DNA from: Alphaproteobacteria bacterium
Lineage (GTDB): Bacteria; Pseudomonadota; Alphaproteobacteria; Rhodospirillales; Rhodospirillaceae
Reading direction: 5' to 3'
DNA: 60,488 bases
NCBI GenBank assembly: GCA_031362385.1
Contig: JANLSL010000273.1
Coordinates: forward strand, 1-60,488
Part shown: one piece after another, positions 7,416 to 37,969 of the stretch
Position numbering within the stretch: position 1 is the first letter of the stretch
How the letters are laid out: each line of letters begins with the position of its first letter
Position numbers and translations under genes: made by a program
The notes under the pieces: generated by a model
Told to the model about the DNA's origin: nothing
What the model saw: only the letters and a program-made list of their open reading frames with translations
Databases searched by the model: none

Positions 7416-8213
7416 CTAGATCATCGAGAGAATCTGGAATTGAGCCTGATACCGGATCTGGTTCGGGGCGGCAGGTTTGAAGAATGTCGGCGATGAAAGC
7501 CAACCGAAATAGGTTTTGCTTTGCCTTTGAATTGTCGCGTCTGAATCGAACAGCCAGAGAGCCACACCGCGCTTGCCCAGCGTCTCGACCAGAGGCTGAA
7601 AATTGGTCGATCGATCACTGTCCGTCATCCACCCGAAATTCATCGAGAGCGTCCGCATGAGGCGGCCGTCGGCTTCGTCCACAACCCCGAAGCGGCCCCA
7701 ATCGATCTCGGCCTGGTCGGCAACGCCAAACTCGAAATCTGGCGAATAGAAATCTGCAAACTGAACTTTCTTGCCAAGCACAATTGCGGCTGCGATGAAA
7801 TCTCCGGTGTGACCGGCGAAATCAATGCGCCACCATTGCTTTGTTTGGAGCGCCGGAAATTCGAGATGCGAGCAATAGAGGCCATCGGTCCGCGTGATCG
7901 ATGGATTGATGAAGGCAACCGCAGTGCTGTCATAATCCGCCGTGCCATCGACCTCGGCCTGGGTATCTCCAACTCTGACTCGGATCGTTGTTCCAACAAG
8001 CGCGTTGGCTGAAATCACCGAACAGAAATCCATAGCCTTCGCAGAGCCGAAATTGCCGCGCACCCAAAGGTTCGTGTTGCCGCTCGATTGCCAGACCATA
8101 CCAGGATTCTTGAACTCATTGAGATGAATTGCCGGCCGACTTGCGATTTCATTGCCAGTGGTGACGGTCCCGAGCGGAAGCGGAACAACTGCAAAAGGTT
8201 TCTGGATTGCCAC
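7416..8213 (-). CDS. Hypothetical late protein (265 aa), possibly virion or tail associated
   Basis: GTG start 3 nt after upstream stop; last gene of the late operon; beta-rich sequence; no family recognised. Confidence 0.65.
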   Translation of the reverse strand: MAIQKPFAVVPLPLGTVTTGNEIASRPAIHLNEFKNPGMVWQSSGNTNLWVRGNFGSAKAMDFCSVISANALVGTTIRVRVGDTQAEVDGTADYDSTAVAFINPSITRTDGLYCSHLEFPALQTKQWWRIDFAGHTGDFIAAAIVLGKKVQFADFYSPDFEFGVADQAEIDWGRFGVVDEADGRLMRTLSMNFGWMTDSDRSTNFQPLVETLGKRGVALWLFDSDATIQRQSKTYFGWLSSPTFFKPAAPNQIRYQAQFQILSMI

Positions 8214-8216
8214 GTT

Positions 8217-8591
8217 CTACCCCCAAATTTCCACGACGGTTTGTTCGTTCCCGAAATTGATCGAAATCTCTGAGACAAGTGCTGCCATGTTCACCAGCCT
8301 TTCATCATCGATCAGTGTCACATTCGGGTTTGTTGAAGTGTAAGTCATTGCGAGCCCTGTTGACTCGCCTGTGATTGCCACCGAGAAGCGCCGCCGATCG
8401 GCTGAGAGCAACGTCTTGCGGGCATCGCAGATTGATTGTGCATCGGTCTGTGCTTCGAAATAGGTTTCAACGGGATCCTCATTGCGCCTTGCATCGTCGC
8501 CATATTTTGCGACGACACCGCTGTCCGGACCGTTTTTGACAATCCGGAAGCCCTGCGTGATGAATGCGATTTGGGCGGCGGTGGCTGGCAT
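8217..8591 (-). CDS. Hypothetical late protein (124 aa)
   Basis: TAATG coupling to the upstream gene. Confidence 0.65.
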   Translation of the reverse strand: MPATAAQIAFITQGFRIVKNGPDSGVVAKYGDDARRNEDPVETYFEAQTDAQSICDARKTLLSADRRRFSVAITGESTGLAMTYTSTNPNVTLIDDERLVNMAALVSEISINFGNEQTVVEIWG

Positions 8592-10528
8592 TAGTTTGGC
8601 CGCACAGGAACAGGCACCCTAGGCCGCGCTCCCCAATTATCGGGATACGCCTGCTTTAACTGCTTGCCGTCGCCAAGATCGGCCCCGCTGCAATTCAGCA
8701 ACTTGTCGATGCACCCAGCGTGCCAGCGTGCCATAACAGTGTCATTCCACGCGCCCCACCAATCTGTGTGAAACGTGGTTCCAGGCTTCATCGGCATCCC
8801 CGGCATAGCGTCGGATGACAGATGCCAGCTATTATGGGTGCCGTCCCAGACGCCCGAACGGTCAAGCGTGGCATCGGTGGTATACCAAGCGCCAAGCGTG
8901 AAGGCCGGAATAACATAGGGGTGTGATGTCGGGCATTGCGCGTAAGACTGCCCGATGTATTTGGCATAGGCAACGTGGCTACGGTGGTCGGCTGAATCAA
9001 GGTTCACTCCGTCCCAACAATCTGGCGCTGCAATGACCGCGCCTAACTTCGCGCCGGTGGGGCAATTCTTCGCCGCAATCACAATGTCCTTGTAGTGGCC
9101 GGGGATCGCGCCATTGCCGGTGCAATCGAAATAGCCCGAACCCGTTGGAGCCGATGCGCCGAGCATGTTGAAGCCGAAGATAAATCGAAGCCCGCGAGGT
9201 AGATCGACACAACCGCCCGTCGCTTGTTTAAGGCAATCAGCCGAGCCTTTTGGGAACCGCTTATAGTAGACGTTCACATGATCGGGTGGGACTACGAAGC
9301 CCTTGCCATCTTTCATGGCGGGCATCCAGTAGGCCGAGCGGTTTAAGGTGTTGCCGCATGACGAAGCACCGGTCTTTCTTAGACTGTCATAGGTTGAGTT
9401 TGCGTCCGCTCCGGTGTTTCCGAAAAACTGGTGGAGATGCGATTTGCCCGGTTGGTTTGGGTAGACAATAGGATCGTCATATTTGAGCATCCCAGCGAGG
9501 CCCGCATTGTCAACCGCCGCTTGACAGATCAGCCGGAACGCGCCGGGATTGCCGACATTGGGAGCGCCGCCGCTAGGAGGGATTGCACCCGTTCCCCATG
9601 CTGGTTGAAGCAAGGCCGCAACGTCCAAGCCGTCAGCAACAGGCGCTAGGCCGGTTGTCGGAATGTTCGGGTCAATCGGCGGTGGTGCTGGAGGAGGTGC
9701 CGGTGGCGGTGCGGGAGGTGGAAACACTGTGCCTGCGAGCAACGCGTCAACCTTGGCCTTGTAAACCGGCGCCATGATCGCTTGCCCCGCGTCTGTCGGG
9801 TGGACGCCATCAGCCTGCAAAGGCACTGTCACTGTGTCGAAGTCGTAAACCGCGTCAATGGTCGTCCCAACCGCTCCACGAAAACAGGCATTGGCCTCAA
9901 CCCGCTTTGTGGCGAAACCTTGGGCCAGATTGCCCGACGGCGCGACTTGTGGAAGGATCGTGCCAATCGCGACTTTCGTGCCGAGCGTCCGAATCGGCCC
10001 GACATAAGCGATAACCGCCGCGCAATACGCATTCCCGCTTGCGTAGGAACCAAGATCATTCGCGCCGATAAGCACTGTGAAAACCTTGGGGTTTGCGGCG
10101 ATGACTGTCGGTCTTCGGGTGATGAGATTATTGAGGCCGGAACCGCCAACGGCAAGCGATGTGAAGGCGGGGTTTGATGCAGCATAGAGGCCGGTATGCG
10201 AACCCGACCACTTAACCGATATGCTATCGCCTTCAGACACGACACCAGCGAGGGTTGCAGGCGGTGGCGGGCTTGGAGGGGGGGCAGGCGGTGGGCTAGG
10301 CGGTGGAGGAGGTGGCGGCACTTCCGCCGCCCTGATCGCCTTGTATTTGGCGTCAACCCGCATGGACGCAGCGGTTATTTTCGAGCCTGTTATATAGGCT
10401 TGCTGGCACATCACGTTGGTAGCGCCACACAAGGCCGCAGCGGATAACTCACGCGCATCCTGGGTAAAGTTTCCAGAGGCCAGCGCAGGCGCGGATACGG
10501 CGGCGAGGAGTAGGGCTAGGCGTTTCAT
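8591..10528 (-). CDS. Secreted two-domain protein: SGNH/GDSL hydrolase plus DUF1996 domain, with poly-proline linkers
   Basis: Signal peptide MKRLALLLAAVSAPALA; SGNH blocks GDSIS, GANDL, DGVHPT; linkers PPPPPPSPPPAPPPSPPPP and PPPAPPPAPPPAPPP; DUF1996 hallmarks DDPIVYPNQPGKSHLHQFFGN and RSAYWMPAM. Confidence 0.8.
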   Translation of the reverse strand: MKRLALLLAAVSAPALASGNFTQDARELSAAALCGATNVMCQQAYITGSKITAASMRVDAKYKAIRAAEVPPPPPPPSPPPAPPPSPPPPATLAGVVSEGDSISVKWSGSHTGLYAASNPAFTSLAVGGSGLNNLITRRPTVIAANPKVFTVLIGANDLGSYASGNAYCAAVIAYVGPIRTLGTKVAIGTILPQVAPSGNLAQGFATKRVEANACFRGAVGTTIDAVYDFDTVTVPLQADGVHPTDAGQAIMAPVYKAKVDALLAGTVFPPPAPPPAPPPAPPPIDPNIPTTGLAPVADGLDVAALLQPAWGTGAIPPSGGAPNVGNPGAFRLICQAAVDNAGLAGMLKYDDPIVYPNQPGKSHLHQFFGNTGADANSTYDSLRKTGASSCGNTLNRSAYWMPAMKDGKGFVVPPDHVNVYYKRFPKGSADCLKQATGGCVDLPRGLRFIFGFNMLGASAPTGSGYFDCTGNGAIPGHYKDIVIAAKNCPTGAKLGAVIAAPDCWDGVNLDSADHRSHVAYAKYIGQSYAQCPTSHPYVIPAFTLGAWYTTDATLDRSGVWDGTHNSWHLSSDAMPGMPMKPGTTFHTDWWGAWNDTVMARWHAGCIDKLLNCSGADLGDGKQLKQAYPDNWGARPRVPVPVRPN

Positions 10529-25621: not shown

Positions 25622-26515
25622 CTAGATCGCGAGCGACTTGGCGCGGTTGAATATGGCTTCGAACGAGCCGATTCCGTCGATCAGGCCCATTTTCATGGCT
25701 TCGTCGCCTGTGAACCAGTCGCCCTCTTGGGCAAGCACGTCATCGGCGGGAATATTGCGGTTTGCTGCGACCATCTGGGCAAACTGGACACGGGTGTCTT
25801 CAACCCATGCCTGCAACTTGGCGAAGGTCGCCTTGTCAGCGCGTTCATATGGTCCACCACGCGCCTTGCGGTCGCCCGCTCTTATCATGGTGATCTCGAC
25901 GCCATCCTTGTCCATCGCACGAGTGAGATCGGCAAGCATTGTCCAGACGCCAATCGAGCCGACCATGCCGGTTTCTGGCATGTAGATTTCATCGCACGCC
26001 GAAGCAATCGCATAGCCTGCCGAGCAAGCCTGTTCATTCGCTGCGCCGATGATCGGCTTTCCACCACTGCGGCGTGATAGAAGGGAAATCTTGCGCGCGA
26101 GATCAAAGCATCCCGCAACCTCGCCACCAGGGCTGTCAATATCGAGCAAAATGCAGCGAACCATTGGATCACGGCTTGCTTCCGTCACTTTCCGGTCGAT
26201 CTGGTTATAGCCAACGGCGCCTGAATAGGGATCGATGCCGCCCACGCGCTGCATGAGCGAGCCCTGCACCGGGATAATCGCCACACCTTCAACCACATCG
26301 TAAAAACGGCTGGCGCGAACGGCGGGCTCATCGTCCAGTCCATCCATTGCCTGTTGCTTCAACTCGACCACACCGAGCGAAACTCCGTCGATGCGGTTAA
26401 GTTTGGCAACCCCAAAATGATCCATGAGTGCTGCTACAACGATCTCGCACTTTTCAGGGCGGAGCAAGAGTGGCGTGTTGAACAAACGCGACCCGACATA
26501 GGGATACAGGCTCAT
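25622..26515 (-). CDS. Prohead protease, peptidase S49 (lambda gpC-like)
   Basis: ILLDIDSPGGEV motif and the overall SppA/S49 pattern; ATGA coupling to the portal gene. Confidence 0.9.
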   Translation of the reverse strand: MSLYPYVGSRLFNTPLLLRPEKCEIVVAALMDHFGVAKLNRIDGVSLGVVELKQQAMDGLDDEPAVRASRFYDVVEGVAIIPVQGSLMQRVGGIDPYSGAVGYNQIDRKVTEASRDPMVRCILLDIDSPGGEVAGCFDLARKISLLSRRSGGKPIIGAANEQACSAGYAIASACDEIYMPETGMVGSIGVWTMLADLTRAMDKDGVEITMIRAGDRKARGGPYERADKATFAKLQAWVEDTRVQFAQMVAANRNIPADDVLAQEGDWFTGDEAMKMGLIDGIGSFEAIFNRAKSLAI

Positions 26516-28173
26516 TTGCTCGGGCCTCCATTTTCAGGCGAAACAGGGCCAGTCTGATCACCGTTGCCATCGCCGGGTTCTGTGGGGTCTGGCGGGCGGC
26601 CGGGGCCAGCCATTGATTGTGTTTCGGTCACATCTGTCAGCCCAAGTGATTTGAGCAGAGCGATTTCACGCGCCCGCTTCACAAGCGTCTGGCGTGGGTT
26701 GATACCCTTGTCAGCCGCGATAATCGCAAGCGTCGTCGTGTTCTGGCGCAACTCAAGGTCATTCGCTTCAGCTTCCTTCTTCGGATCGCCGGAGCCAGGT
26801 CCCGGACCCATCCATTCGCCTTGGCACATCTCGGGAGCCCATCGGTAGAAATTGGCAGGACCGCCCGGAACCTTGATCTCGCCGAGCGCCACCGCTTCTT
26901 CCATCCATGCCGCATAAAATGGTGTGGCAAATTCCTGCGTGAACAATTCCCTGTCTTCAAGGAACCCGCGCCACATTTCATTCTTCATCAGGCGCCCCGA
27001 TGAATAGTTTATGTCAGCCCAATTCTGCGAAAGGTGCGGATAGGAAAGGCCCATTGCGCCTGCGATCTTCCTGTCCTGCGCGCCCGCGAAATTCGGATAA
27101 TTTGCCGCTGGTCGCGCTGGTTGATTCATGTCGAACTTTTCGCCGGGCAGCAAATGCCCGACCTGCAAACCCGGAACGCGAACCTTTTGCTCTTTGCGAT
27201 AGTCAATAATCGTATTGAACCAACCGCTTGTAGATTCTTCGCTTCCAGGCGCAATCATGTCGCGCACGTCGCTTCCAGGCGCAGCGCTTGTTACAAATGC
27301 CGCCATCACCGCATTGAGCAAGGCTGCGTCCAGTTCCGCCTTGTCGTAGCGATCGGACATTTTGATCCGCTCCATTGCCGCCGCGAGGCGACTGACTCCA
27401 CGGCGTTGGTCAGCGCGATCCGCGCGAAACGCATGAATGAATTGTGGACGTCCCGTGCGCCCATAACGCTCAATCCTTGTCCATGTGAACCTGTCCGCAG
27501 TCGGCATAACCGAGGCCGGATGCGCGTTGCGGATATAGTAGGCCACAACCTCGCCGGTTGATTTCAGGATTTCCACGCCGCCAACGCATATATTCCCGTT
27601 TGCCAGCACGGTTTCATCTGGAATCTCTTGCGGATTGCTCAACCTGTCGGGGTCTATCAGTTTGATTGCCGTGGCGAATTTTCCACCGCGTTTCAAATTC
27701 ATCACCAACCCACACGCCTCGCCGTCGATCAACCAGTGCCGATAGCCTGTGCGCAGCATCTCGGGAAAGCGTGCCTTGCGGTCGGCATCGCAGCGCCGCC
27801 ACGGATCATTCGCCCAGACCCTAAACCTTGCCTCAACATCGGTTGCCCATTTGTCAGCCCATTCCGGCGTCCTGCCCATCGCCTCATAGTCGGGCTGCGC
27901 TTCAAGCCACATTCTTGCGCCAATGACACTTTCGCAAAGCCGGTCAATGCCGCCAGAGATCGTCGGATTGTTGCGGATCAGGTCTCGGGCTCGGGCGACG
28001 ATCTGGTCACGGCTTGAAAGAATTTCCTCTGCCGACGAAGCAATTGTTGGCGTCCATGCTCCGAGTTCGCGCGTATCGCTCCGTCCCGCATCATAGTGGC
28101 GGCCCCCAAACCCCATCAGCGCGGCAAGGCGCGGAAGGCCGGTTGCCGACATCAGGTTTGAAGCAACGCCCAT
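26512..28173 (-). CDS. Portal protein, lambda family
   Basis: 553 aa; position and sequence pattern of lambda-B-type portals. Confidence 0.9.
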   Translation of the reverse strand: MGVASNLMSATGLPRLAALMGFGGRHYDAGRSDTRELGAWTPTIASSAEEILSSRDQIVARARDLIRNNPTISGGIDRLCESVIGARMWLEAQPDYEAMGRTPEWADKWATDVEARFRVWANDPWRRCDADRKARFPEMLRTGYRHWLIDGEACGLVMNLKRGGKFATAIKLIDPDRLSNPQEIPDETVLANGNICVGGVEILKSTGEVVAYYIRNAHPASVMPTADRFTWTRIERYGRTGRPQFIHAFRADRADQRRGVSRLAAAMERIKMSDRYDKAELDAALLNAVMAAFVTSAAPGSDVRDMIAPGSEESTSGWFNTIIDYRKEQKVRVPGLQVGHLLPGEKFDMNQPARPAANYPNFAGAQDRKIAGAMGLSYPHLSQNWADINYSSGRLMKNEMWRGFLEDRELFTQEFATPFYAAWMEEAVALGEIKVPGGPANFYRWAPEMCQGEWMGPGPGSGDPKKEAEANDLELRQNTTTLAIIAADKGINPRQTLVKRAREIALLKSLGLTDVTETQSMAGPGRPPDPTEPGDGNGDQTGPVSPENGGPSK

Positions 28174-28751
28174 TACCAGCCGATCGCGATGGGGCTGCGA
28201 CGCGAATAACCGGCCGCCAGATTGGTTGCCTGATCAATGTCGCGTTCGAGAATTGAAATCAGATCGGTCAAACCTTGCAAAGTCACCCTTCCTTTTGTGA
28301 TACGTCGCCCATCGCGCATAACGTCATCGACGCGCTTGCCCGATGCCAGATCCATGCGCGCCGCACGCACCGCAGCCAGATCGGCAGTCAAAGTCTCAAC
28401 ATCGGTCGGTAAAGCGAGAACGGGCGCTGCGGACTCCACCGTGAGAATACCGTGTTGCTCGCCGCTGAACCCGCTCGCCGCTTTGGCGATCTTTACCGAA
28501 ACCACGAATTGATTGATTGCAAATAATAGCGTCTCGGCAGGCGTCAGGCCGGCAACGAAAGCAGTGTTGGCCGCCGCGCCGGAATAGGCTGGTTGCATAA
28601 CTGTGACTGCCCGGTTGACCGCTGTTCCGCCCACCGTGATGTTGCAGGTATAGCCAGCCGATAGATCGGCAAGTGTGCCAGCGCCATCGGTGTCATGCCA
28701 GACGAGCCATCCAACACTGTCCCCCTGAATGATCGTCTTGGCGTCAAGCAT
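28173..28751 (-). CDS. gpW-like head-tail joining domain fused to an extra ~120-aa N-terminal domain
   Basis: The C-terminal 70 aa (DLAAVRAARMDLASGKRVDDVMRDGRRITKGRVTLQGLTDLISILERDI...SRRSPIAI) aligns with lambda gpW ([47 protein letters not shown]...RRRGPAGF). Confidence 0.75.
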   Translation of the reverse strand: MLDAKTIIQGDSVGWLVWHDTDGAGTLADLSAGYTCNITVGGTAVNRAVTVMQPAYSGAAANTAFVAGLTPAETLLFAINQFVVSVKIAKAASGFSGEQHGILTVESAAPVLALPTDVETLTADLAAVRAARMDLASGKRVDDVMRDGRRITKGRVTLQGLTDLISILERDIDQATNLAAGYSRRSPIAIGW

Positions 28752-31377
28752 TTCCGACTTTTCCTAAGATTGGAGTTGAACCGGCAGTGCCAGGATTGGC
28801 AGATGATTTTGCTAGGCTATCGATGAAGTCAGAAACAGAACCCTTCGTATCAAGCGTCCCGTCCGCACCTCCGACAATCGGGGTCGACCCCGCCCGCCCA
28901 AAGGTAAACAAACTTGAAATTCCCGCGCCATACCCGATGACCAAACAGGTTCCCGACGCCGTTGCGATTGCAAGAGCCAGACCCCCGCCGGTTGCCGTAG
29001 CGGTTGCCGTGGCGGCGGATGTTCCTGCTGAAGCCGAATTTGCGGCTCCTATCCCAACGATATTGCTTGTTCCCGCAGCAATTCCATTTGCAGCGGCGAG
29101 ACTGGATCCTGTTACCGCTGCCGTTCCGAGCCCCGTGGCTGACGCCACTGCTTGCGTTGCGCCCGTTCCAAATGCTGTTGCCGTTCCCGCACCTGAAGCT
29201 GAACCAATCCCTGCTGCGAGCGCACCACCTGTAGCAGTGGCCGTTACCGCCCCGCTTGCAGCGCCCGTAGCGGCTGCGAGGCTGGCTCCAACACCGGTTG
29301 CGGTCGCTGCACCAGAAGCGGTTGCTGTTCCCGCACCTGATGATGCCGTCGAACCAACGCCCGTTGCTGTTCCGGTTCCGCTGGCTGTTCCGACTGCGGC
29401 TGCAAGCGAAGCGCCTGTCGCTGTTGCTGTGCCTGTTCCGCTCGACGCCGCGATTGATGCAACGATCGAGGCCGCACCGCCTGTAGCCGTGCATGTGCCG
29501 CTCGCGGTTCCAGTCGCGGCTGCCAAAGAGGCGCCGGTTGCCGTTGCCGTTCCTGTGCCAGAGGCCGTGGCAATCGCGTGAGCAAGCGCGATTCCAATTC
29601 CAGAGGCCGTTCCCGCGCTCGATGCCGCGGCAATCGCGGGGGCTAGGGATGCCCCTGTCGCGGTTGCAGAACCAACTCCACTTGCCGTTGCTGTCGCGGC
29701 TGCCAGCGAAGCGCCAATGCCCGTCGCTGTTCCCGTTCCAGATGCTACGGCATCGGATGCCCCGGTTGCCGTTGTTCCGACCCCAGATGCCGTTCCTGTT
29801 CCAGATGCAGTGGCAGTCGCGGCTGCCAAAGAGGCGCCGATCCCTGTCGCTGTCGCCGTTCCCGAGGCCAAAGCCGTTGCAGGAACCGCTGCGTTTCCAA
29901 TTCCCGAGGCCGTTCCTGTGCCTGTAGCCGATCCGACCGCCGAAGCGATTGATGTTCCAGTGGCTGTTGCCGTTCCAACGCCGTTTGCGGTGGCTGTTGA
30001 TGCCGCCGTAGAGGAACCAACGCCGGTTGCTGTGCCAATTGCACTTGCCGAAGCCGTGCTTGCACTCAGGACCGCGCCAACACCCGCTGCCGTGCCTGTT
30101 CCTGATGCAGTCCCCACGCCTGGCGCGATGGCTACTCCGGTTGCAGTGGCAGTGCCGATTCCCGTTGCCGTGCCGGTTGAGGCTGCCGTCGAAGCCCCGA
30201 TACCCGTTGCTGTGCCGGTTCCCGCCGCCGAAGCGCTGCTTGCACTGACCGCAGAGCCTGTCGCTGCTGCCGTTGCAACTCCTGCCGCGCTCGCGCTTGA
30301 CGCCGCGATCGATGACCCAACGCCGGATGCTGTTCCGATTCCCGTTGCAGCGGCAACCGCAGGAGCCAAAGCATTCCCGGTTGCAGATGCTGTCGCTACA
30401 CCAGAGGTTGCTCCAATGGCGGGTGCGAGCGCACCACCTGTCGCAGCCGCTGTGGCAACCCCTGATGCAGATCCAGTCGCCGATGCAATCGAAGAACCAG
30501 CGCCTGTTGCGGTGCCGACGCCAGTTGCGGTGCCGACCGCGGCAGCTACTCCCGTTCCCGCAACATACAGAATTAAATCTTCATCGAACCACCCAAGATG
30601 ACTTGTCTCATTGGAAAACCAATTTCTCGCAACAAGTTCGGCATCAAAAAAGCCGAGCGGGACGATGTTTTCGTAAACTGGAGCGTCCGGCCAAGGAAGG
30701 CGGCTGGGGATATTAGCCAGAAGTCTGTCAGCGCGGAATTTCGTTCCGGTTGTGACGGGCTGCGTGGCTTTGATAAGAGACCGTGGAATATTGCTTTCGA
30801 GTGATATTAATTCGGTCAGATATTGCGGGCGAATATCCCTTGGGTCAGCACCTTTGGAAAGAGCAACAGCTTCGGCGGGCGAAAGCATAACGCCCGACCA
30901 CCATGCGCTATCCCCATGCGCGCCGTCCCAATCGACACCGCCGGTTGTGCGGTTGCCGATACTTAAAGGGCCGGTTCCTTGATTGGCCGTTCCAACGCTC
31001 GCCGTCGTTGTGGACATTGTAGCCACACGGCCATTGATATAAAATATTGGGACACTACCAGCTACGCCGTCATAAGTAACAACAGCGTGAACCCATTTAC
31101 CCGTCGCGATGGCTTCTGCGTCGGTTGTTTGCCATTGCCCGCTTGTGGTGCTGAAACTCCGCGACATCGTGATACTGCCAGCGGAATTATTATTGCGAAA
31201 GATGATTTCGCCGGGGCTTCCGGCCTCTTTGTCAAATATGCGAGAATTGCCAAGCCCGCCCGCGCCGTTGCGAAAATACCAGCACGAGAATGAAAAAACT
31301 AACGGGCTGAGAAACGATGCTGCCTTTACCAGATCGGTTGTGCCAACCCCAAGCGTTGAGCCAAAGCCGCGTGCCAT
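28744..31377 (-). CDS. 877-aa LamG-like domain protein with a ~500-aa Ala/Gly/Thr/Ser tandem-repeat region
   Basis: The N-terminal ~190 aa resemble a concanavalin/LamG fold (...WVHAVVTYDG...IFYINGR...IGNR...). Degenerate ~20-aa units of the type ASGTGTATGIGASLAAATAT follow, then a short unique C-terminus. Confidence 0.8.
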   Translation of the reverse strand: MARGFGSTLGVGTTDLVKAASFLSPLVFSFSCWYFRNGAGGLGNSRIFDKEAGSPGEIIFRNNNSAGSITMSRSFSTTSGQWQTTDAEAIATGKWVHAVVTYDGVAGSVPIFYINGRVATMSTTTASVGTANQGTGPLSIGNRTTGGVDWDGAHGDSAWWSGVMLSPAEAVALSKGADPRDIRPQYLTELISLESNIPRSLIKATQPVTTGTKFRADRLLANIPSRLPWPDAPVYENIVPLGFFDAELVARNWFSNETSHLGWFDEDLILYVAGTGVAAAVGTATGVGTATGAGSSIASATGSASGVATAAATGGALAPAIGATSGVATASATGNALAPAVAAATGIGTASGVGSSIAASSASAAGVATAAATGSAVSASSASAAGTGTATGIGASTAASTGTATGIGTATATGVAIAPGVGTASGTGTAAGVGAVLSASTASASAIGTATGVGSSTAASTATANGVGTATATGTSIASAVGSATGTGTASGIGNAAVPATALASGTATATGIGASLAAATATASGTGTASGVGTTATGASDAVASGTGTATGIGASLAAATATASGVGSATATGASLAPAIAAASSAGTASGIGIALAHAIATASGTGTATATGASLAAATGTASGTCTATGGAASIVASIAASSGTGTATATGASLAAAVGTASGTGTATGVGSTASSGAGTATASGAATATGVGASLAAATGAASGAVTATATGGALAAGIGSASGAGTATAFGTGATQAVASATGLGTAAVTGSSLAAANGIAAGTSNIVGIGAANSASAGTSAATATATATGGGLALAIATASGTCLVIGYGAGISSLFTFGRAGSTPIVGGADGTLDTKGSVSDFIDSLAKSSANPGTAGSTPILGKVGNA
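28980..30530 (-). repeat. Coding tandem degenerate repeats (approximate bounds)
   Basis: Repeated GCx/ACx/GGx codon blocks; they produce Pro/Ala/Val-rich shadow ORFs on the plus strand. Confidence 0.7.
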
Positions 31378-31378
31378 G

Positions 31379-31858
31379 TTACGCTACCGTCGCGTTAATG
31401 CCCTGATAGACGGCGCTGTGGCTTCCGCCCGTGGCATCAAGGGCCGCGCCTGATTGATTGTCGATCACGATGCCCCACTTCGCCGGGACGCCCCCATAGC
31501 CGAACGCGCGGGAGAGGTTGAAAATTGAAACATAAGTCGTTGCGTTGGCAATCGTCGGCAGCGAACCGAGAAAGATCAGCGCGTCTTTGTTGTTTGTGAA
31601 GGCGGCATCCGTGCCGGTAGCCCCGCCTGAATATGTTGTCCCGTCATCCGCTGTTGCATAGGCGAAGATATTGACCGTGCCGGTTGCGCTTGTGCCAGCC
31701 GCGTTCGTCTTGACCTTCATCTGGATCTTGATGTCCATGAACAAGTTGGACGTGTTGACTATAGCCGTGCTTTCACGCGCCGATGTGTTGCCAAGCGATG
31801 CAATCGTCAGCGTAATCGTCTGGTTGGTTGTGCCGAAAAGTTGAGTGAGCAGGCCCAT
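31379..31858 (-). CDS. Hypothetical beta-rich protein (159 aa)
   Basis: TAA/ATG coupled ORF in the TerL-gpW insert. Confidence 0.65.
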   Translation of the reverse strand: MGLLTQLFGTTNQTITLTIASLGNTSARESTAIVNTSNLFMDIKIQMKVKTNAAGTSATGTVNIFAYATADDGTTYSGGATGTDAAFTNNKDALIFLGSLPTIANATTYVSIFNLSRAFGYGGVPAKWGIVIDNQSGAALDATGGSHSAVYQGINATVA

Positions 31859-32262
31859 TATGAAGCCCTCGCCAAAGCTACATCAGAATGCCCGATTGTC
31901 GGCAGGCCGAGTTCTTCCGCGCGGCTGATCTTCGGTGGCGTAATCGCTTGAAAGTTAGTCCGCGTTTGCGTTCCCGCGCCGAAAACGCTTGCCATATACA
32001 CAACCGCCTTACTGCCCGCCGTCAGGTCAAGATCAACCGCCTTGAGTAAGATTGCCAGCGTGTCTCGCTTTGCCGCTGTTAAAGCCTCAACTTCCGTCCA
32101 GACAATGACATCGTTCATCAGATCGTCACCCGTCAGCGTGATTGCCGTGCCTGTGCGGTTTGCGGTATTGAGGCTGATTGCCGCAGCCGCGTCTGACATG
32201 GCTGCATAGCCACGGGTGAGCGGGTCGGTTGTCAGTTCGGTTTTGAGTGCGGACGCTGCCAT
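31858..32262 (-). CDS. Hypothetical protein (134 aa)
   Basis: TAATG coupling; N-terminus ...LKTELTTDPLTRGYAAMSD. Confidence 0.65.
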   Translation of the reverse strand: MAASALKTELTTDPLTRGYAAMSDAAAAISLNTANRTGTAITLTGDDLMNDVIVWTEVEALTAAKRDTLAILLKAVDLDLTAGSKAVVYMASVFGAGTQTRTNFQAITPPKISRAEELGLPTIGHSDVALARAS

Positions 32263-33170
32263 TAGCTGACGGCTGCATAAAGCGTCACAAGCCCGCCTGT
32301 GATCGCAGCCGCAGGATCAGGCATTGCGGTTGTCAGGCCGGTGGACGAAGTGCCATGCAAGATCGGAACGGTGGCAGCGAGTTGCCCGCCTGTTTTCGCG
32401 GTGTTTCCCTTCGTTGTAATAATCGTCGTGGCGGTCATCATCAGCCCGATATAATACAAGCCGCTGGTTGGCACGCGATAGGCCGTTGTCATTGCCAGTG
32501 TCTTGTAAGTGTTCGCCGCCCATGCGGTTGTGGTCTGGTTTGCGGAAACTGCCAAGCGTCCGAGCGCGCCGGAATAAAGCGCAAAGAAATAGTTGGTCGG
32601 CGTGCCTGCCGCCGTTGTCGCGCTTGAGATAGAGATATTTGAAACCAGTTGGCCCGCTTTCAGATAGATCGCCTGCATGAAAAGCGTGCCCGACGCGGTC
32701 GGGATTGTCGCGTTGGTTTCCGTGCAGAACTCGCGGGGGATGGTTTCCGCTATAGTACCTGTTGGCCCAAGGTTCCCGAACGGTGGCCCAGCGTAGGTGT
32801 AAAGCCCGCCTTGCGAATCGCGATGCTGCCATTCACCCTCGACATAATACAGGTTTTCGCCCGCAAGCAACGTAACCGAGATTACGTCAACCGCCGTTGC
32901 CGCGTCGAAATGCTGCACCGTGACTTGGGTCGATGCCGAGGCGTGGTTGTTTTCGAGCGTCAGGATTTTAACCTTGCGCTTGTAGTTTACAACACCGGAA
33001 ACCAGCGTTGTAGTGGTGGCCGTAGCGATTGCCGCTGCGTTCGTCGGATGCCCGACAAGCACGGGATCGGTTGTGGTTTCCTTGTAATCCGCATAATCCG
33101 CGCGCCAAGAAATGCTCGCCGCCGAACCTGTGACTAGCCGGATGACTTCGCCTGTGCCGTTGAGGATCAT
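32262..33170 (-). CDS. Fibre / receptor-binding-like protein (302 aa)
   Basis: Thr/Ala/Gly-rich beta-type sequence; operon context. Confidence 0.6.
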   Translation of the reverse strand: MILNGTGEVIRLVTGSAASISWRADYADYKETTTDPVLVGHPTNAAAIATATTTTLVSGVVNYKRKVKILTLENNHASASTQVTVQHFDAATAVDVISVTLLAGENLYYVEGEWQHRDSQGGLYTYAGPPFGNLGPTGTIAETIPREFCTETNATIPTASGTLFMQAIYLKAGQLVSNISISSATTAAGTPTNYFFALYSGALGRLAVSANQTTTAWAANTYKTLAMTTAYRVPTSGLYYIGLMMTATTIITTKGNTAKTGGQLAATVPILHGTSSTGLTTAMPDPAAAITGGLVTLYAAVS

Positions 33171-33203
33171 GCCCTGTTGCCCTCGATCGACAAGGAGGCA
33201 TGG

Positions 33204-33686
33204 TCACACATCTGCATGGGTTGGGATCCTTATTTGTCCAAATAGCTTTTTCGTCGCCAGTTCCCGCGCATTTTTCATCTGCGCGCTCACGAACGCGGGT
33301 TCCTTGCGCCCCTCTGCAAAAGCATCATTCACCGCATCTTCCATCGCACCGCGAATGATAACTGCCGCCGGCTTCAACGCAGGGTTGCTCATATTGACCG
33401 ATATGCCGACGCCCTGGACGCAAATCGGATACATCCGTTCAGCCTTGGGCCTCAAAATGTCAGGCAACCCGCTCGGGATATTCCGCTCGGTCAACCAGCG
33501 ATGGCTATAGGCACGGTATTTCAGATCGATCGTGCCAACCTCAGTTCGGGCCCGGTGCATGATAATCTCGGCCTGTTCCGTGGTGCCGGGAACAGGAAGG
33601 TGCGGCGCGATAACGCGCCACCGCTCAACCAGATCGCGAGCATCGCCCCTGATCAGGGCGTCCACGAATTCAGAGTGTTGTGACAC
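33204..33686 (-). CDS. Hypothetical protein (160 aa)
   Basis: GTG start overlapping upstream TAG. Confidence 0.55.
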   Translation of the reverse strand: MSQHSEFVDALIRGDARDLVERWRVIAPHLPVPGTTEQAEIIMHRARTEVGTIDLKYRAYSHRWLTERNIPSGLPDILRPKAERMYPICVQGVGISVNMSNPALKPAAVIIRGAMEDAVNDAFAEGRKEPAFVSAQMKNARELATKKLFGQIRIPTHADV

Positions 33687-33898
33687 TATGCTTCGACTGG
33701 AAACGCAACAGTCATTGCGCCAGTCCCTGAAACTTCCACGCTTCCGGAGACAGATTCTTCCTCGACCGAGCCGCTGTAGAAAACGACCTTGGCAACCTTA
33801 CTCTCAGCATCGAATCCCGCATCGCCATTGGCTTTGCACTTACCATCGGCGACAACCAGGCCATCCACCCCATAGGCTCTGAAACGATCTGCTGACAT
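33686..33898 (-). CDS. Hypothetical small acidic protein (70 aa)
   Basis: ORF in operon context. Confidence 0.5.
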   Translation of the reverse strand: MSADRFRAYGVDGLVVADGKCKANGDAGFDAESKVAKVVFYSGSVEEESVSGSVEVSGTGAMTVAFPVEA

Positions 33899-33916
33899 AA
33901 AAAATTCCTTTTTCAG

Positions 33917-34714
33917 TTAGCCCAAGGGGGCGGGACCAATATTGTGCGAGCCGCAATCGTTGCAGCGCATCACGATGTGCTTGCCGTGTCTTCCTTGGCG
34001 GAGTTGAAGATTGTCGGGGGAATTGTTTAATCGATCTCCATCAATGTGATGGATCGTCTCAGATCGCAGAAGCGGACGCCCGAGTTTTCGAGCCATGACC
34101 AGCCGGTGTTCCATCACGTAACTATCTTTTCCGCACATAACGGCCATAGGGTCGGTGCGATCCACCAGAACGCGCCAGTATCCGCTGGCCTTCATTCTAC
34201 CCCCGCGCCACATGCCATGAGCCTCACCCCGCCTGGGTGAAAAGACTTCCCCTTGTGACCGGAGAAAGCGGCTTACAGCGCTTTGCGACCGCCCCAGTTT
34301 CAATGAAATGACCTGTTGAGAAAACCCCTGCTTTCTTAGGTGCAGAACTTGTGATTTTTCTAACCCGTTAAGAGATGGTGTTACTGGTATTAGAGTTCCA
34401 CCGGCCCGGCGTATCGCGGCCTTTATTGAGTAAAATGTGCCGCCAAAGCGCTCCACGAGTTGAGCAAAATATTCTCCGGCTTCGTATCTCGTTCGAATCT
34501 CTTTTTCGACCACCGGATCAAATTTACGTGCGTTCAGACGGTAGTTTTCAAGGCCGGTCCTTTTAACGCCGTGCCGCTCCAAAACTCGGTAAATAGTGCT
34601 TGTAGATAACCCGGTTTCTTGAGAGATTTGATTGACCGAGAGGCGGCCCATGTATCGATCAATCAGGTCTTCGTCAGAGATTTCCAGTTGCCTCTTTTTG
34701 CCCATATGTCCCAT
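33917..34714 (-). CDS. HNH homing-type endonuclease with N-terminal HTH modules
   Basis: C-terminal ...EHRLVMARKLGRPL...ETIHHIDGDRLNNSPDNLQL...; three HTH-like segments; ATG 34714 has GAGG upstream (track start 34747 is TTG); locally AT-richer by eye. Confidence 0.8.
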   Translation of the reverse strand: MGHMGKKRQLEISDEDLIDRYMGRLSVNQISQETGLSTSTIYRVLERHGVKRTGLENYRLNARKFDPVVEKEIRTRYEAGEYFAQLVERFGGTFYSIKAAIRRAGGTLIPVTPSLNGLEKSQVLHLRKQGFSQQVISLKLGRSQSAVSRFLRSQGEVFSPRRGEAHGMWRGGRMKASGYWRVLVDRTDPMAVMCGKDSYVMEHRLVMARKLGRPLLRSETIHHIDGDRLNNSPDNLQLRQGRHGKHIVMRCNDCGSHNIGPAPLG

Positions 34715-34773
34715 TCTTGCCTCACTCGCATGAATAATGTGAGACAACGCATTAAGAGACTTTCTAATCTAAA

Positions 34774-35205
34774 TCAATCAAGACTTATGCTACTCGAAGA
34801 AGTCAACTGCGGCGTGATTCCGTTGCCCGTCACAATATTCGGAGTGACCGTGCCATCGGCGATGATGTCCGCCGCGCCGCCACCGGTCTTGCCTGCCGCG
34901 AAGTGTGTGACCGTGCCACTACCACCGGTGCCGGCCGGAAAACTGGTCAGCGCAACAAGATTGGTCGCGCCCCCAGAAGGAGCCGTCCAGCCGCCCGTGG
35001 TCCGTGCCACGTTCACCCGCGCATAACTGGTATAGGTGGTCTCTGAAGTGGACATCGTGCCAGCATCGCCCGGTGCCCCCGTTGACAGGGCCAGATGGAT
35101 ATTCGTCTGCGGGGTTGTCGCCGCATTGTCTGCATAGTTTGCCCATGCTGTTGCGTTGAAAATCAACGCCAGAATGGCATTTTCGGCAATGTTACTGAAT
35201 GACAT
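34774..35205 (-). CDS. Conserved phage structural-type protein (143 aa)
   Basis: MSFSNIAENAILALIFNATAW... N-terminus resembles a recurrent phage family; the ATG follows the TerL stop. Confidence 0.6.
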   Translation of the reverse strand: MSFSNIAENAILALIFNATAWANYADNAATTPQTNIHLALSTGAPGDAGTMSTSETTYTSYARVNVARTTGGWTAPSGGATNLVALTSFPAGTGGSGTVTHFAAGKTGGGAADIIADGTVTPNIVTGNGITPQLTSSSSISLD

Positions 35206-35206
35206 C

Positions 35207-37147
35207 TCAAGTGTCCCTTTCATCGGATTGAGTCAGGCTTTGCAGCCGCTCAAACATTGGGTTGCGCTTTGGTGGTTCGGGAGGCGTCGGCACATTGGCG
35301 CCGTCGTCTTGATCACCCCCCTTCGAAATTGTTACAGGCCGCGCCCACGGAGGCATCTGGCCTTGCGACCATTTCAGATCGGCTCGGTCTGGACGGAGCA
35401 TGAGGCGCCCCGCTTCTTCGTAGGCGAAAAGGTCCAGACTCTCGTTCGGCCCGTTGCGTTCCCATTTTCCGTCGATCAGGCGTTCGTTGAAATATTCGTC
35501 AAAATGGTTGCCCGCGATCCCTTCGGCGAACAGGCATTGCCCTGGCCCGCCATCATCGACGCCAAGCCGCTCAACCGCCAATTCCTTCAACTTGTGAACG
35601 CCCAGCGTATATTCGAGGATGATCGGTGACACGATGCGACCGTGTTCATCCTTGCTGATCTTGGTGGGTGCGACCGGCAACTCAGGGGCTTTTGCTGATG
35701 ATGATCCCTGTATGAGCCGGACCCGAGACCACGGTTGCGCGGGAGACCCCCAATAACGTCCAGATACCAACGCCCGCCGCGCAAACTCGCGGCCTTTCCA
35801 GACCACATTGCCATCGCCGACATCGATCGTGACGACCGCTACTGGCATTTCAAGTCCGGATGACCCAATGATCGGGAACGTCCGGTCAATCACTTGCGCG
35901 TAGAGAACATCCCAATCCTCAATCCGTTCGCGCGTCCGGATGTCGCGCATTACACCGTCTGCCCAGAGACGTTGCCGTATCGTGAACCTGTCGAGCCACC
36001 ATGAGCGCGATTCGAGATCGAAGGCGCGGAACGAAACGTCGAACTTGCCAGAGCCCACATCGACCGCCGCGACGATGAAATTTGCGTTCGGCGGAAACTC
36101 GCCAACCTGAAGCACGCGCTCGCTGGCGGCTCGTTTTTGGAGCGAGGCAGAGGATGATCCCCGCCCAGCTTTTGCGCCTTCGAACACTTCCCCTAAAACT
36201 TTTGCTGTCACTTCGCGAAGTTGATCGGATTTTCCGGTCTGGTCGAACTTCACCTTGGCTGTTTCCAGATCGCGCGCCAATTCAGGCAGTGTGATCGTTT
36301 TCAACAGCAATCCATGTATCCATGCGCCGAAGGTTTCGGTCTGATCAATATCTCCAACTACGCCTTCGACCACATCCAATGTCTGCCCTTTGTGGAGCAT
36401 CTTGACGTCATCGATCATGGCTAAACGCTGTTCGTCGGTTAGTAGCGCGCCGCAGTGCGGACACACCATAGCCGCGCTCGCCTTCGCCATTGCGATCCTT
36501 TCATCGCTCGCTGCAAGCGGGTCTTGCTGGTATGTTAGATTGAATTGCGGTATCTCGGGCCAGAATTTTGTCGAATGAACTGATGCCCAGCCGTTGCATT
36601 CCGCGCAAGGCATGATGAATATCCCGCGCGATGACTGCTCCCAGGCATTCGCGATTCCAGTCCCCCATCCCCGATCAGGGTGCGAGCAAAGCCCGACCTT
36701 GCGCCTATTCCCGAGAACACGACCACGAATGCGGGTCTGTTGCAGGAATGAGGCGCAGAGCCTTGGCGAATAGACATCGAGTTCGTCGCCAAAAATGTAA
36801 GCCGCTTGACGCTGCGTTATGGTTTTATTGTTCGCCGGCAGAACCTCAAGGGTCCGGCTCCAAACAACCTTCTTCGATAAATTGTTATCTGACCGGCCGG
36901 CACCGATCTTGCCGATGACCTCAGGTGTTTCGAAAAGCCACGGCCATTGCTGGGTTGTGTATGTGCTGACTTCGCTGTCACTGCCCATGTAGTGCAGGAA
37001 ATCGGTCGGAGGGCCATAGATCATGCGCCGCAATAAGTAATTCTCAAAGGACGTCGTTTTTCCCGATCGACCTGGCCCGACAACAATAACTTCGCGAACC
37101 GAAGGGTTGTCCAAAGCGTCTTGGATTGGAACGATGTAGGGTGTCAT
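35207..37147 (-). CDS. terL: Terminase large subunit, GpA family (coordinates from first ATG; true N-terminus probably upstream, up to 37351)
   Basis: TPYIVPIQDALDNPSVREVIVVGPGRSGKTT (Walker A), Zn-finger CPHCG, 646 aa; the in-frame upstream extension carries further GpA-like sequence. Confidence 0.9.
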   Translation of the reverse strand: MTPYIVPIQDALDNPSVREVIVVGPGRSGKTTSFENYLLRRMIYGPPTDFLHYMGSDSEVSTYTTQQWPWLFETPEVIGKIGAGRSDNNLSKKVVWSRTLEVLPANNKTITQRQAAYIFGDELDVYSPRLCASFLQQTRIRGRVLGNRRKVGLCSHPDRGWGTGIANAWEQSSRGIFIMPCAECNGWASVHSTKFWPEIPQFNLTYQQDPLAASDERIAMAKASAAMVCPHCGALLTDEQRLAMIDDVKMLHKGQTLDVVEGVVGDIDQTETFGAWIHGLLLKTITLPELARDLETAKVKFDQTGKSDQLREVTAKVLGEVFEGAKAGRGSSSASLQKRAASERVLQVGEFPPNANFIVAAVDVGSGKFDVSFRAFDLESRSWWLDRFTIRQRLWADGVMRDIRTRERIEDWDVLYAQVIDRTFPIIGSSGLEMPVAVVTIDVGDGNVVWKGREFARRALVSGRYWGSPAQPWSRVRLIQGSSSAKAPELPVAPTKISKDEHGRIVSPIILEYTLGVHKLKELAVERLGVDDGGPGQCLFAEGIAGNHFDEYFNERLIDGKWERNGPNESLDLFAYEEAGRLMLRPDRADLKWSQGQMPPWARPVTISKGGDQDDGANVPTPPEPPKRNPMFERLQSLTQSDERDT

Positions 37148-37354: not shown

Positions 37355-37969
37355 TTATCTCCTCTTTTCAACCCATCGCTGACCAGCTTCGTGCATTTTC
37401 ACGAGCATGTTTCGACACGCATTTTCCACTGATAATCGAACCTCAGGTTCGAACGCTCCTGTTGGATCAACCTCTTGGGCAACATCGAGCGCCGCCGATT
37501 GGATGGTCTGCAAAAAGTCGATGAAATCTCGGATTGATGAATCCTTGTCCATCGTTCCGGCGCTCGCCTCTTTTTCCTTTCGGATGCTGGCGGCGATCTT
37601 CACGAGTTTGTCGAGCCGGTCGATCGACATTGAGTTTTCACTGCCAGCCTCATCGGGGATTATGAATCCCGTCAAACTTGCTTCGCGCCGAAGCCTGGCC
37701 TGCCCTACCTCGATCCGCTCTTTCGCACGGCGGATCATGTGTTCAATAACCTTGATCACTTTGAACTGCCATTTCACACCCTCGGCGCCTCGGCGCTGAA
37801 TCGGGAACTTCGCGTCCTTCTCGATATGTGTAACCAACAAGCCGCGCCAAGTCAGGCCGACAATCTTCGCCATAACCTCGGCGGAGACAACATCCTTGGG
37901 CGATGAAACTTTTTTCGCCGCTTCAAGCCGTCTGATCAATTCTGTGGGGTCGCCGAGCGGTCGTGCCAT
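37355..37969 (-). CDS. terS: Terminase small subunit, Nu1-like
   Basis: N-terminal winged-HTH-like segment (MAKIVGLTWRGLLVTHIEKDAKFPIQRRG..GVKWQF) and a coiled-coil C-terminus; directly upstream of TerL. Confidence 0.7.
   Translation of the reverse strand: MARPLGDPTELIRRLEAAKKVSSPKDVVSAEVMAKIVGLTWRGLLVTHIEKDAKFPIQRRGAEGVKWQFKVIKVIEHMIRRAKERIEVGQARLRREASLTGFIIPDEAGSENSMSIDRLDKLVKIAASIRKEKEASAGTMDKDSSIRDFIDFLQTIQSAALDVAQEVDPTGAFEPEVRLSVENACRNMLVKMHEAGQRWVEKRR

Follow-up and report, generated by a model that had tools for sequence, protein, structure and literature searches.

Rope-and-bead neck fibers have so far been seen in only three phages: the Ralstonia podophage GP4 and the Ounavirinae myophages Sf14 and Bas63. 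In Bas63, dimers of the whisker protein are wrapped around a rope "like beads on a string," and the rope strand fills out the incomplete sandwich of each bead; this rope is the N-terminal extension of an Ig-like collar protein mounted on the adaptor (PMC12609058). GP4 has a separate, longer rope protein that carries five dimers and interlocks with the Ig-like collar gp77, and its fiber I is directed up toward the capsid (PMC12609058). The arrangement has been called rare, and a role in reversible surface attachment has been speculated for the fibers of both GP4 and Bas63 (PMC12609058). Here we analyzed a 60,488-nucleotide stretch of an alphaproteobacterial contig (JANLSL010000273.1), referred to below as the window. 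Eight minus-strand genes at positions 28744-35205 lie in it between lambda-type genes for the large terminase (TerL) and the gpW head-tail adaptor. On balance, this block and the first ~112 codons of the gpW gene probably encode a fiber built on the rope-and-bead plan and anchored at the head-tail joint. It is the first candidate of this kind that we found in a lambda-type module, and its proposed anchor is a domain fused to gpW.

With GP4 fiber I, the locus shares a Gp80-family subunit, an adjoining separate gene for a periodic, rope-like protein, and a small beta-sandwich attachment domain at the cassette end, in the same order of bead, rope, and collar. GP4 is a T=9 podophage, whereas the window phage is predicted to be long-tailed with a lambda-type head and connector. 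In the window, the attachment domain forms one protein with gpW and shows no detectable relationship to Gp77; the rope, with ~27 repeats versus ~10 in GP4, is ~2.7-fold longer and carries a LamG head and an F-D motif; and the partners g302, g134, g159, and g160 are without GP4 counterparts. In the collar-whisker systems of Bas63 and Sf14, the fibers are anchored at the level of the neck adaptor, a likeness that we propose for the window. Their beads sit on a rope N-terminal to the collar. In the window, the same polarity is distributed over two overlapping genes: rope precedes collar::gpW, just as rope precedes collar from the N to the C terminus of the fused Bas63 protein. The Bas63 rope lies within the collar protein, carries two dimers only, and belongs to a collar that is a separate ring bound to the adaptor, whereas in the window the rope is separate and very long, and the collar-like domain lies within the adaptor polypeptide. 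T4 Wac (fibritin) and the XM1 gp40 collar/whiskers are also neck-anchored fibers with an accessory role in adsorption or assembly, as proposed here, but they are trimeric coiled coils from one gene product, and no product of the block is predicted to be a coiled coil.

An additional gene block and an enlarged gpW gene

The late operon runs on the minus strand and comprises a small-terminase candidate (37355-37969), TerL of the lambda gpA type (35207-37147; PF05876, PF20454, and phrog_15), the eight open reading frames (ORFs), the gpW-domain gene g192, and a lambda-family portal gene (26512-28173; PF05136, E 5.6e-89). Past the portal, an S49 protease, a scaffold candidate, gpD, gpE, and an FII-like protein follow in order. 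TerL and the portal are the upstream and downstream boundaries of the module and lie outside it. The gpA-type TerL, gpW domain, lambda-family portal, S49 protease, gpD, and gpE occur in the order known from the Nu1-A-W-B region of lambda, from which the window differs by 6.5 kb of putative fiber genes between A and W and by a W product of 192 instead of 80 amino acids (aa). All eight ORFs were present at 28744-35205, on the same strand and with intergenic spacing of -8 to +33 nt, in agreement with an earlier sequence-only reading that had described a tightly coupled block. Promoter-like and terminator-like sites in the block did not exceed the counts of shuffled expectation. A Pfam hit or conserved homologs elsewhere were obtained for seven of the eight products, the exception being g70.

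Seven contigs in IMG/VR encode a TerL that is 42-61% identical to that of the window. In six of them (L001-L005 and L007 of our comparison loci), TerL is followed by an 80-aa gpW and then by the portal, with nothing between, and the block is indeed extra with respect to the lambda order, as the sequence-only reading had held. Because the window gpW gene aligns with the 80-aa gpW of these relatives from ~residue 115 only, the extra DNA, as judged by alignment, consists of the eight genes and of ~112 codons at the start of the gpW gene (about 28416-28751), and the block boundary formerly placed at 28744 had to be moved into g192. The seventh relative, L006, has a 171-aa Gp77-like::gpW fusion directly after TerL (7688-8203) and is without the block; its contig is 9 kb long, and fiber genes, if any, must be elsewhere. 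As to whether such a gene order is simply the norm of the lineage, it was the norm in the sub-lineage with an enlarged gpW (L031, L032, and L073) and in L070 and was absent from L001-L007. We propose that the block lies between TerL and the portal because its products attach to the neighboring gpW adaptor, to which a domain has been added.

A nucleotide search with the 9.2-kb region against 50,697 phage records gave no match, nor did tblastn with g877, and TerL was at most 26% identical to that of any isolated phage. With no nucleotide match and so distant a TerL, no cultured relative was at hand.

Bead, rope, and anchor of the proposed fiber

The first gene of the block, g149 (34774-35205), encodes a Gp80-family protein, i.e. 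a putative bead corresponding to the whisker or fiber I subunit. It scored 47.6 bits against Pfam PF23140 (cut-off 27; E 2.6e-12), above the gathering score, and matched the GP4 gp80 chain 8jou_a by phmmer with an E value of 5.8e-4. A bead gene in the same position of L073 is 73% identical. The ORF extends to 35223, and a second ATG at 35205 gives a product of 143 aa, the length listed by the sequence-only reading. The second ATG is most likely the start because it lies 1 nt past the TerL stop and the same start is found in the L073 homolog.

The gene order in GP4 is gp80, gp79 (325 aa), gp78, and gp77. PDB entry 8jou contains 10 gp80 chains plus gp77, which Pfam describes as a "fiber-tail adaptor" (PF23148); gp79 is absent from the PDB by sequence, although gp80 and gp77 are present. 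A weak 20-aa period runs over ~220 residues of gp79, and with ten beads this would correspond to one repeat for each bead monomer. Lying between the bead gene gp80 and the collar gene gp77, gp79 (10948-11925 of L013) is a candidate for the rope chain of 8jou.

The corresponding position in the window is occupied by g877 (28744-31377), which sits between the bead gene and the collar::gpW gene and consists of short tandem units like a rope of the GP4/Bas63 type. Four segments were distinguished in its 877-aa product. Residues 1-229 (30691-31377) form a LamG (concanavalin-like) domain, the proposed distal lectin head, of which residues 27-164 matched PF13385 Laminin_G_3 with 50.8 bits (cut-off 27.6). 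Residues ~238-268 (30574-30666) contain a triple Phi-F-D-x-x-L (aromatic-F-D-x-x-L) motif with 10-residue spacing. The proposed rope proper, residues 271-~815 (28933-30567), comprises ~27 tandem 20-aa repeats rich in Ala, Gly, Thr, and Ser, with an identity at a 20-residue shift of 0.43 versus 0.20 expected from composition. The C-terminal tail with the stop codon (28744-28932) ends in PILGKVGNA; the ropes of L031 and L073, both of which precede the same enlarged gpW, have a conserved version of it (LFGKIGNAA). This succession of LamG head, F-D motif, repeats, and conserved tail would be the layout expected of a fiber rope. Tandem Repeats Finder detected no large array and no tandem repeat at the DNA level in the rope gene, which implies that the periodicity is old and held at the protein level and is not a recent duplication or an assembly artifact. 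Rope-like genes were found beside bead-like genes in ~25 unrelated phage contigs, with periods of 18-24 aa, lengths of 215-1014 aa, and wholly different sequences. Long ORFs of 264, 294, and 214 aa in antisense and other frames on the plus strand at 28787-30601 are spurious, being artifacts of the Ala/Gly/Thr-rich repeat.

The stop end of g877 overlaps the start of g192 by 8 nt. The C-terminal part of g192 (residues 117-192; 28173-28403) is a lambda gpW head-tail adaptor domain: residues 122-174 matched PF02831 with 28.7 bits (cut-off 22.5), the match to 1hyw had an E value of 1.4e-4, and Foldseek returned 8xow_W and 8k38_M with probabilities of 0.98-0.99; the C-terminal part matches lambda gpW as it sits on the portal. 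In the AlphaFold2 (AF2) model, two gpW helices are preceded by an N-terminal seven-stranded beta-sandwich with strands at residues 14-106, at a mean confidence (pLDDT) of 69. This extra domain (residues 1-~112; 28416-28751) is, from model, homologs, and context, a proposed collar or docking domain. It is missing from the 80-aa gpW of L001-L005 and L007, the six relatives that also are without the block. The nine homologs of full-length g192 measure 194-195 aa, and in the four distinct contexts examined (L031, L032/L033, L072, and L073), the enlarged gpW is directly preceded by a rope gene or by a complete block; the L072 contig is cut within the rope gene. The same genomic position as the extra domain is taken in L070 by PF23148 Gp77 fused to gpW and in L006 by a Gp77-like sequence motif fused to gpW. 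We dropped the idea that the N-terminal domain of g192 is a Gp77 homolog and retained positional equivalence only: the domain may be regarded as an analog of Gp77, that is, a small beta-sandwich at the connector with which the fiber cassette ends.

These elements can be assembled into one model. The 877-aa protein would be an extended rope, the C-terminal tail of which locks into the beta-sandwich fused to gpW, so that a ring of docking sites would surround the portal-adaptor junction. Each of the ~27 repeats of 20 residues would complete the open sandwich of one Gp80-type bead; the rope would then carry a row of bead dimers, and fiber length would follow from the repeat number. Near the distal, N-terminal end, the triple F-D motif would recruit g302, the C-terminal domain of which resembles a fiber-tip knob, and the terminal LamG lectin domain would act together with g159 and g134, placing lectin and knob domains at the distal end. 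By analogy with the described fibers, the likely role of the module would be reversible binding of cell-surface glycans ahead of tail engagement. The argument for a single structure at the head-tail joint is that a bead, an ~300-aa protein, a periodic rope, and a collar recur in this order and end in an adaptor domain bound to the portal.

Proposed partner cassettes and their recurrence in other phages

The gene g302 (32262-33170) encodes a 302-aa protein for which the AF2 model shows two beta-sandwich domains (pLDDT 78). More than 1360 homologs of ~301 aa and 58-70% identity were found. In BFVD, the C-terminal domain resembled distal domains of minor-tail and collagen-repeat fiber proteins of Streptomyces and Gordonia phages (E 5e-9 to 1e-6), and it also matched a tail-tip chain of Bxb1. 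In addition, residues ~130-260 were 40-55% identical to proteins of Streptomyces, Micromonospora, Actinoplanes, and other actinobacterial genomes (L037-L069), and it seems from these identities that a fiber-tip domain is common to phages of very distant hosts. No usable match to g302, g134, or g159 came from profile searches of PHROG and PDB.

The F-D motif of g877 aligns with the N termini of the ropes that follow g302 homologs. Such a rope was present in 20 of the 21 distinct g302 loci examined, the window included; in these 20, a small bead-like gene came first, and the motif usually stood right after the initiator Met of the rope. We therefore propose g302 as the partner of the F-D motif of g877. 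The phages that bear g302 are not related in their packaging and portal types (Mu-like, DUF4055, and others), and in L011 a free Gp77 gene also occurs after the rope. A contig of a Pseudomonadota metagenome-assembled genome (MAG; L036, 21-1499) carries two tandem g302-family genes upstream of one F-D-motif rope, the first being cut by the contig end. A scan of genome contigs with g302 alone gave no match; repeated with a g302 alignment, it gave three near-full-length copies only, all in MAGs, plus the C-terminal-domain matches in actinobacterial genomes. The g302 cassette thus appears to be rarely a prophage in sequenced genomes.

The small genes on either side of g302 were without a Pfam, PHROG, or PDB match; this applied to g134, g159, g160, and g70. 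An exhaustive search placed g134 (31858-32262; 134 aa) in a large uncharacterized family of 684 clusters. The beta-rich protein g159 (31379-31858; 159 aa) has 294 homologs with identities of up to 88%, and in each locus examined (L074, L075, L076, and L021) its homolog directly precedes the gene for a LamG-headed repeat protein. In L074 and L075, which belong to an SU10-like podophage, a g134 homolog (52% identical) is followed by a g159 homolog (85%) and a LamG protein with 20-aa repeats, and a bead-like gene comes next; the LamG head of the L074 rope is 67% identical to that of g877. In L076, a Mu-like phage, the g159/LamG cassette ends in a Gp77-like protein. L021 has g302 and g159, then a rope in which an N-terminal domain precedes the F-D motif, and lastly a small protein of 98 aa. 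A conserved protein of the module, g160 (33204-33686; 160 aa), is 56% identical to the 159-aa product of a gene between bead and rope in L073; from its position alone, we would guess that it is an assembly factor.

The three loci with an enlarged gpW that were examined in full (L031, L032, and L073) all have the order TerL, block, enlarged gpW, and portal. Between TerL and gpW, L073 encodes a Gp80 bead, the 159-aa protein, a 75-aa ORF, and a 539-aa rope with 20-aa repeats of Ala, Gly, Thr, and Ser. L031 has a 107-aa ORF, a 124-aa bead-like protein, a 279-aa protein, and a 540-aa rope with a 22-aa unit and a tail of the L073 type, and L032, with the same arrangement in L033, has a 125-aa ORF, a 192-aa bead-like protein, a 381-aa protein, and a 958-aa rope with a 23-aa unit. 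In the lambda-like L070/L071, TerL is followed by ORFs of 78 and 77 aa, a 131-aa bead-like protein, a g302 homolog (68% identical), and an F-D-motif rope, and then by a 179-aa protein composed of PF23148 Gp77 and gpW and by the portal. The public gene call for L070 at 8710-9813 took an antisense ORF of 367 aa and missed the real rope gene of 473 aa.

Compared with L073, the window looks like a basic cassette to which an HNH/g70 insertion, a g302/F-D cassette, and a g134-g159-LamG cassette have been added. The module thus appears, from these comparisons, to be a mosaic of three cassettes that are found apart elsewhere, namely bead-g160-rope-collar, g302 with the F-D-motif rope, and g134-g159-LamG, plus the HNH insertion. 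Each segment of the rope varied together with a neighboring gene: the enlarged gpW accompanied the tail, a bead gene the repeats, g302 the F-D motif, and g159 and g134 the LamG head. This co-variation suggests that the rope is a linear template on which each partner is recruited. That it acts as an assembly template with the repeat number as a length ruler, and that g302 possibly takes one F-D motif per trimer subunit, is a tentative extension to which we give less credence than to the neck fiber itself. If true, phages of all three tail morphotypes would share a plug-and-play neck-fiber system in which recombination could exchange tip, length, and anchor independently of one another. Its main parts, the unannotated g302, g134, and g159 families of hundreds to thousands of proteins each, would then represent new families of virion proteins.

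The window and the comparison loci suggest that the rope-and-bead design is common in environmental phages, lambda-like ones included, that it is modular and almost wholly unannotated, and that its anchor can form part of the gpW adaptor. They also provide a testable functional assignment for families without a Pfam, PHROG, or PDB match, namely g302, g134, g159, and the enlarged gpW. Should the proposed rule of one 20-residue repeat per bead hold, fiber length could be read from sequence. A fiber with separate cassettes for tip, length, and anchor would be an attractive scaffold for display or host-range engineering.

Alternative explanations and minor features

Several observations weigh against the proposed neck fiber. 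Its physical contacts, virion location, and function were deduced throughout from family memberships, repeat structure, synteny, and co-occurrence, which are observed directly. Most bead-like proteins of the comparison loci were not detected by the Gp80 profile, and alignment of these families with Gp80 by hhalign, from shallow local alignments, gave weak values only (P 0.002 and 0.007) and was not used as evidence. The identification of gp79 with the published rope is itself a deduction, since gp79 is not found in the PDB by sequence, and the similarity between g877 and gp79 was at the level of low complexity (E 0.03). The g192 model is only moderate in confidence (pLDDT 69). Neither g192 nor its nine homologs gave a Gp77 hit in hmmscan even at E 10, hhalign of the N-terminal domain against Gp77 reached a probability of 0.1, and Foldseek with the model did not return 8jou. 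L034 is the exception to the pairing of g302 with the F-D motif, and L006 has a collar::gpW fusion but no block at the site. Finally, the repeat rich in Ala, Gly, Thr, and Ser could fold into a fiber unaided.

The last point leads to the idea that the 877-aa protein is a self-standing fiber, a beta-solenoid or a trimer of its own repeats, with g149, g302, g134, and g159 as accessory or decorating proteins. Small-residue-rich repeats could self-pack, the neck-fiber model demands that one Gp80 gene serve ~27 repeats, and a weak right-handed beta-helix hit was obtained in the L032 rope. A period that stays nearly constant at 18-24 aa although the repeats are unrelated, always beside a bead-type gene, fits better with a spacing imposed by a partner, for which GP4 and Bas63 offer a solved precedent, and we regard a self-standing fiber as unlikely. 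A tail side-fiber or receptor-binding module that merely lies in the head region, with its products at the tail tip or baseplate, appears equally unlikely. It would account for the resemblance of the g302 C-terminal domain to distal domains of minor tail proteins and to the Bxb1 tail-tip chain, for the frequency of LamG domains in tail fibers, and for the L008 podophage contig, in which the Gp80 homolog stands among genes annotated as tail genes. Yet the module always ends at a collar-type domain, which here is covalently part of the gpW seated on the portal; the solved Gp80-type fibers hang from the neck or adaptor region; and the window encodes large tail-end proteins elsewhere, downstream of the tape measure.

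Less probable still are head fibers or decoration proteins on the capsid surface. The PHROG matched by g149, phrog_240, is labeled "head protein," the g302 model showed moderate similarity to chain 9jwb_Z of the cyanophage A4 capsid asymmetric unit (TM 0.59 on the target), and GP4 fiber I points up to the capsid; against this, the phage already encodes the gpD decoration protein, no capsid-binding domain was found in the block, and the block is linked to gpW rather than to the capsid gene. The most remote explanation is a set of unrelated morons or cargo genes that form no common structure and are tolerated by the late operon. The block is mosaic and varies between relatives, and the HNH gene and g70 resemble a selfish insertion, but the same slots for a bead, an ~300-aa protein, a periodic rope, and a collar appear in the same order in many unrelated phages, and the block genes are translationally coupled to gpW. 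The sequence-only reading had offered head fibers, a displaced side-fiber module, or cargo. None of the three fits best, and a head-tail-joint fiber of the GP4 fiber-I or Bas63 whisker kind is favored. The fiber-like character seen in that reading was retained, and the site is now read as the neck, not the head or the tail tip. Of the cargo idea, the part concerning the HNH gene and perhaps the 70-aa ORF stands, as these behave like selfish cargo; the rest of the block does not.

The HNH gene (33917-34747; start codon uncertain) encodes two helix-turn-helix (HTH) regions and an HNH_3 motif. HNH_3 and HTH_23 scored above their cut-offs, and many HNH PHROGs were hit. In L073, which is without this gene, the homologs of the bead and g160 abut, revealing a presence/absence polymorphism at a conserved junction. 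Third-position GC (GC3) was 0.52 in the HNH gene, 0.52 in g70, 0.47 in the rope, and 0.53 in the LamG head, compared with 0.60-0.69 in the neighboring late genes, which hints at a more recent acquisition of these pieces. Its absence from the L073 junction and its deviant GC3 suggest that the HNH gene is a secondary insertion, probably a free-standing homing endonuclease. The adjoining ORF g70 (33686-33898; 70 aa) is without a family and without a homolog in any fetched locus, and was probably co-inserted with the HNH gene. A role of the HNH protein as an HK97-style HNH-terminase partner in cos cleavage was rejected, given that a gpA-type TerL has its own nuclease domain and that L073 is without the HNH gene.

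Large tail-end genes, separate from the block, sit downstream of the tape measure in the window. A search with a 400-aa putative tail protein yielded no informative match. Among the tail-end genes, 8591-10528 on the minus strand encodes a 645-aa protein with a GDSL lipase/esterase domain and DUF1996, which may be a virion-borne deacetylase of surface polysaccharides. PF23474 (Acb1, the phage anti-CBASS nuclease) was found beside or within Mu-type portal genes of two unrelated phages that both carry fiber cassettes (L010, 17901-19094; L076, 4118-6226).

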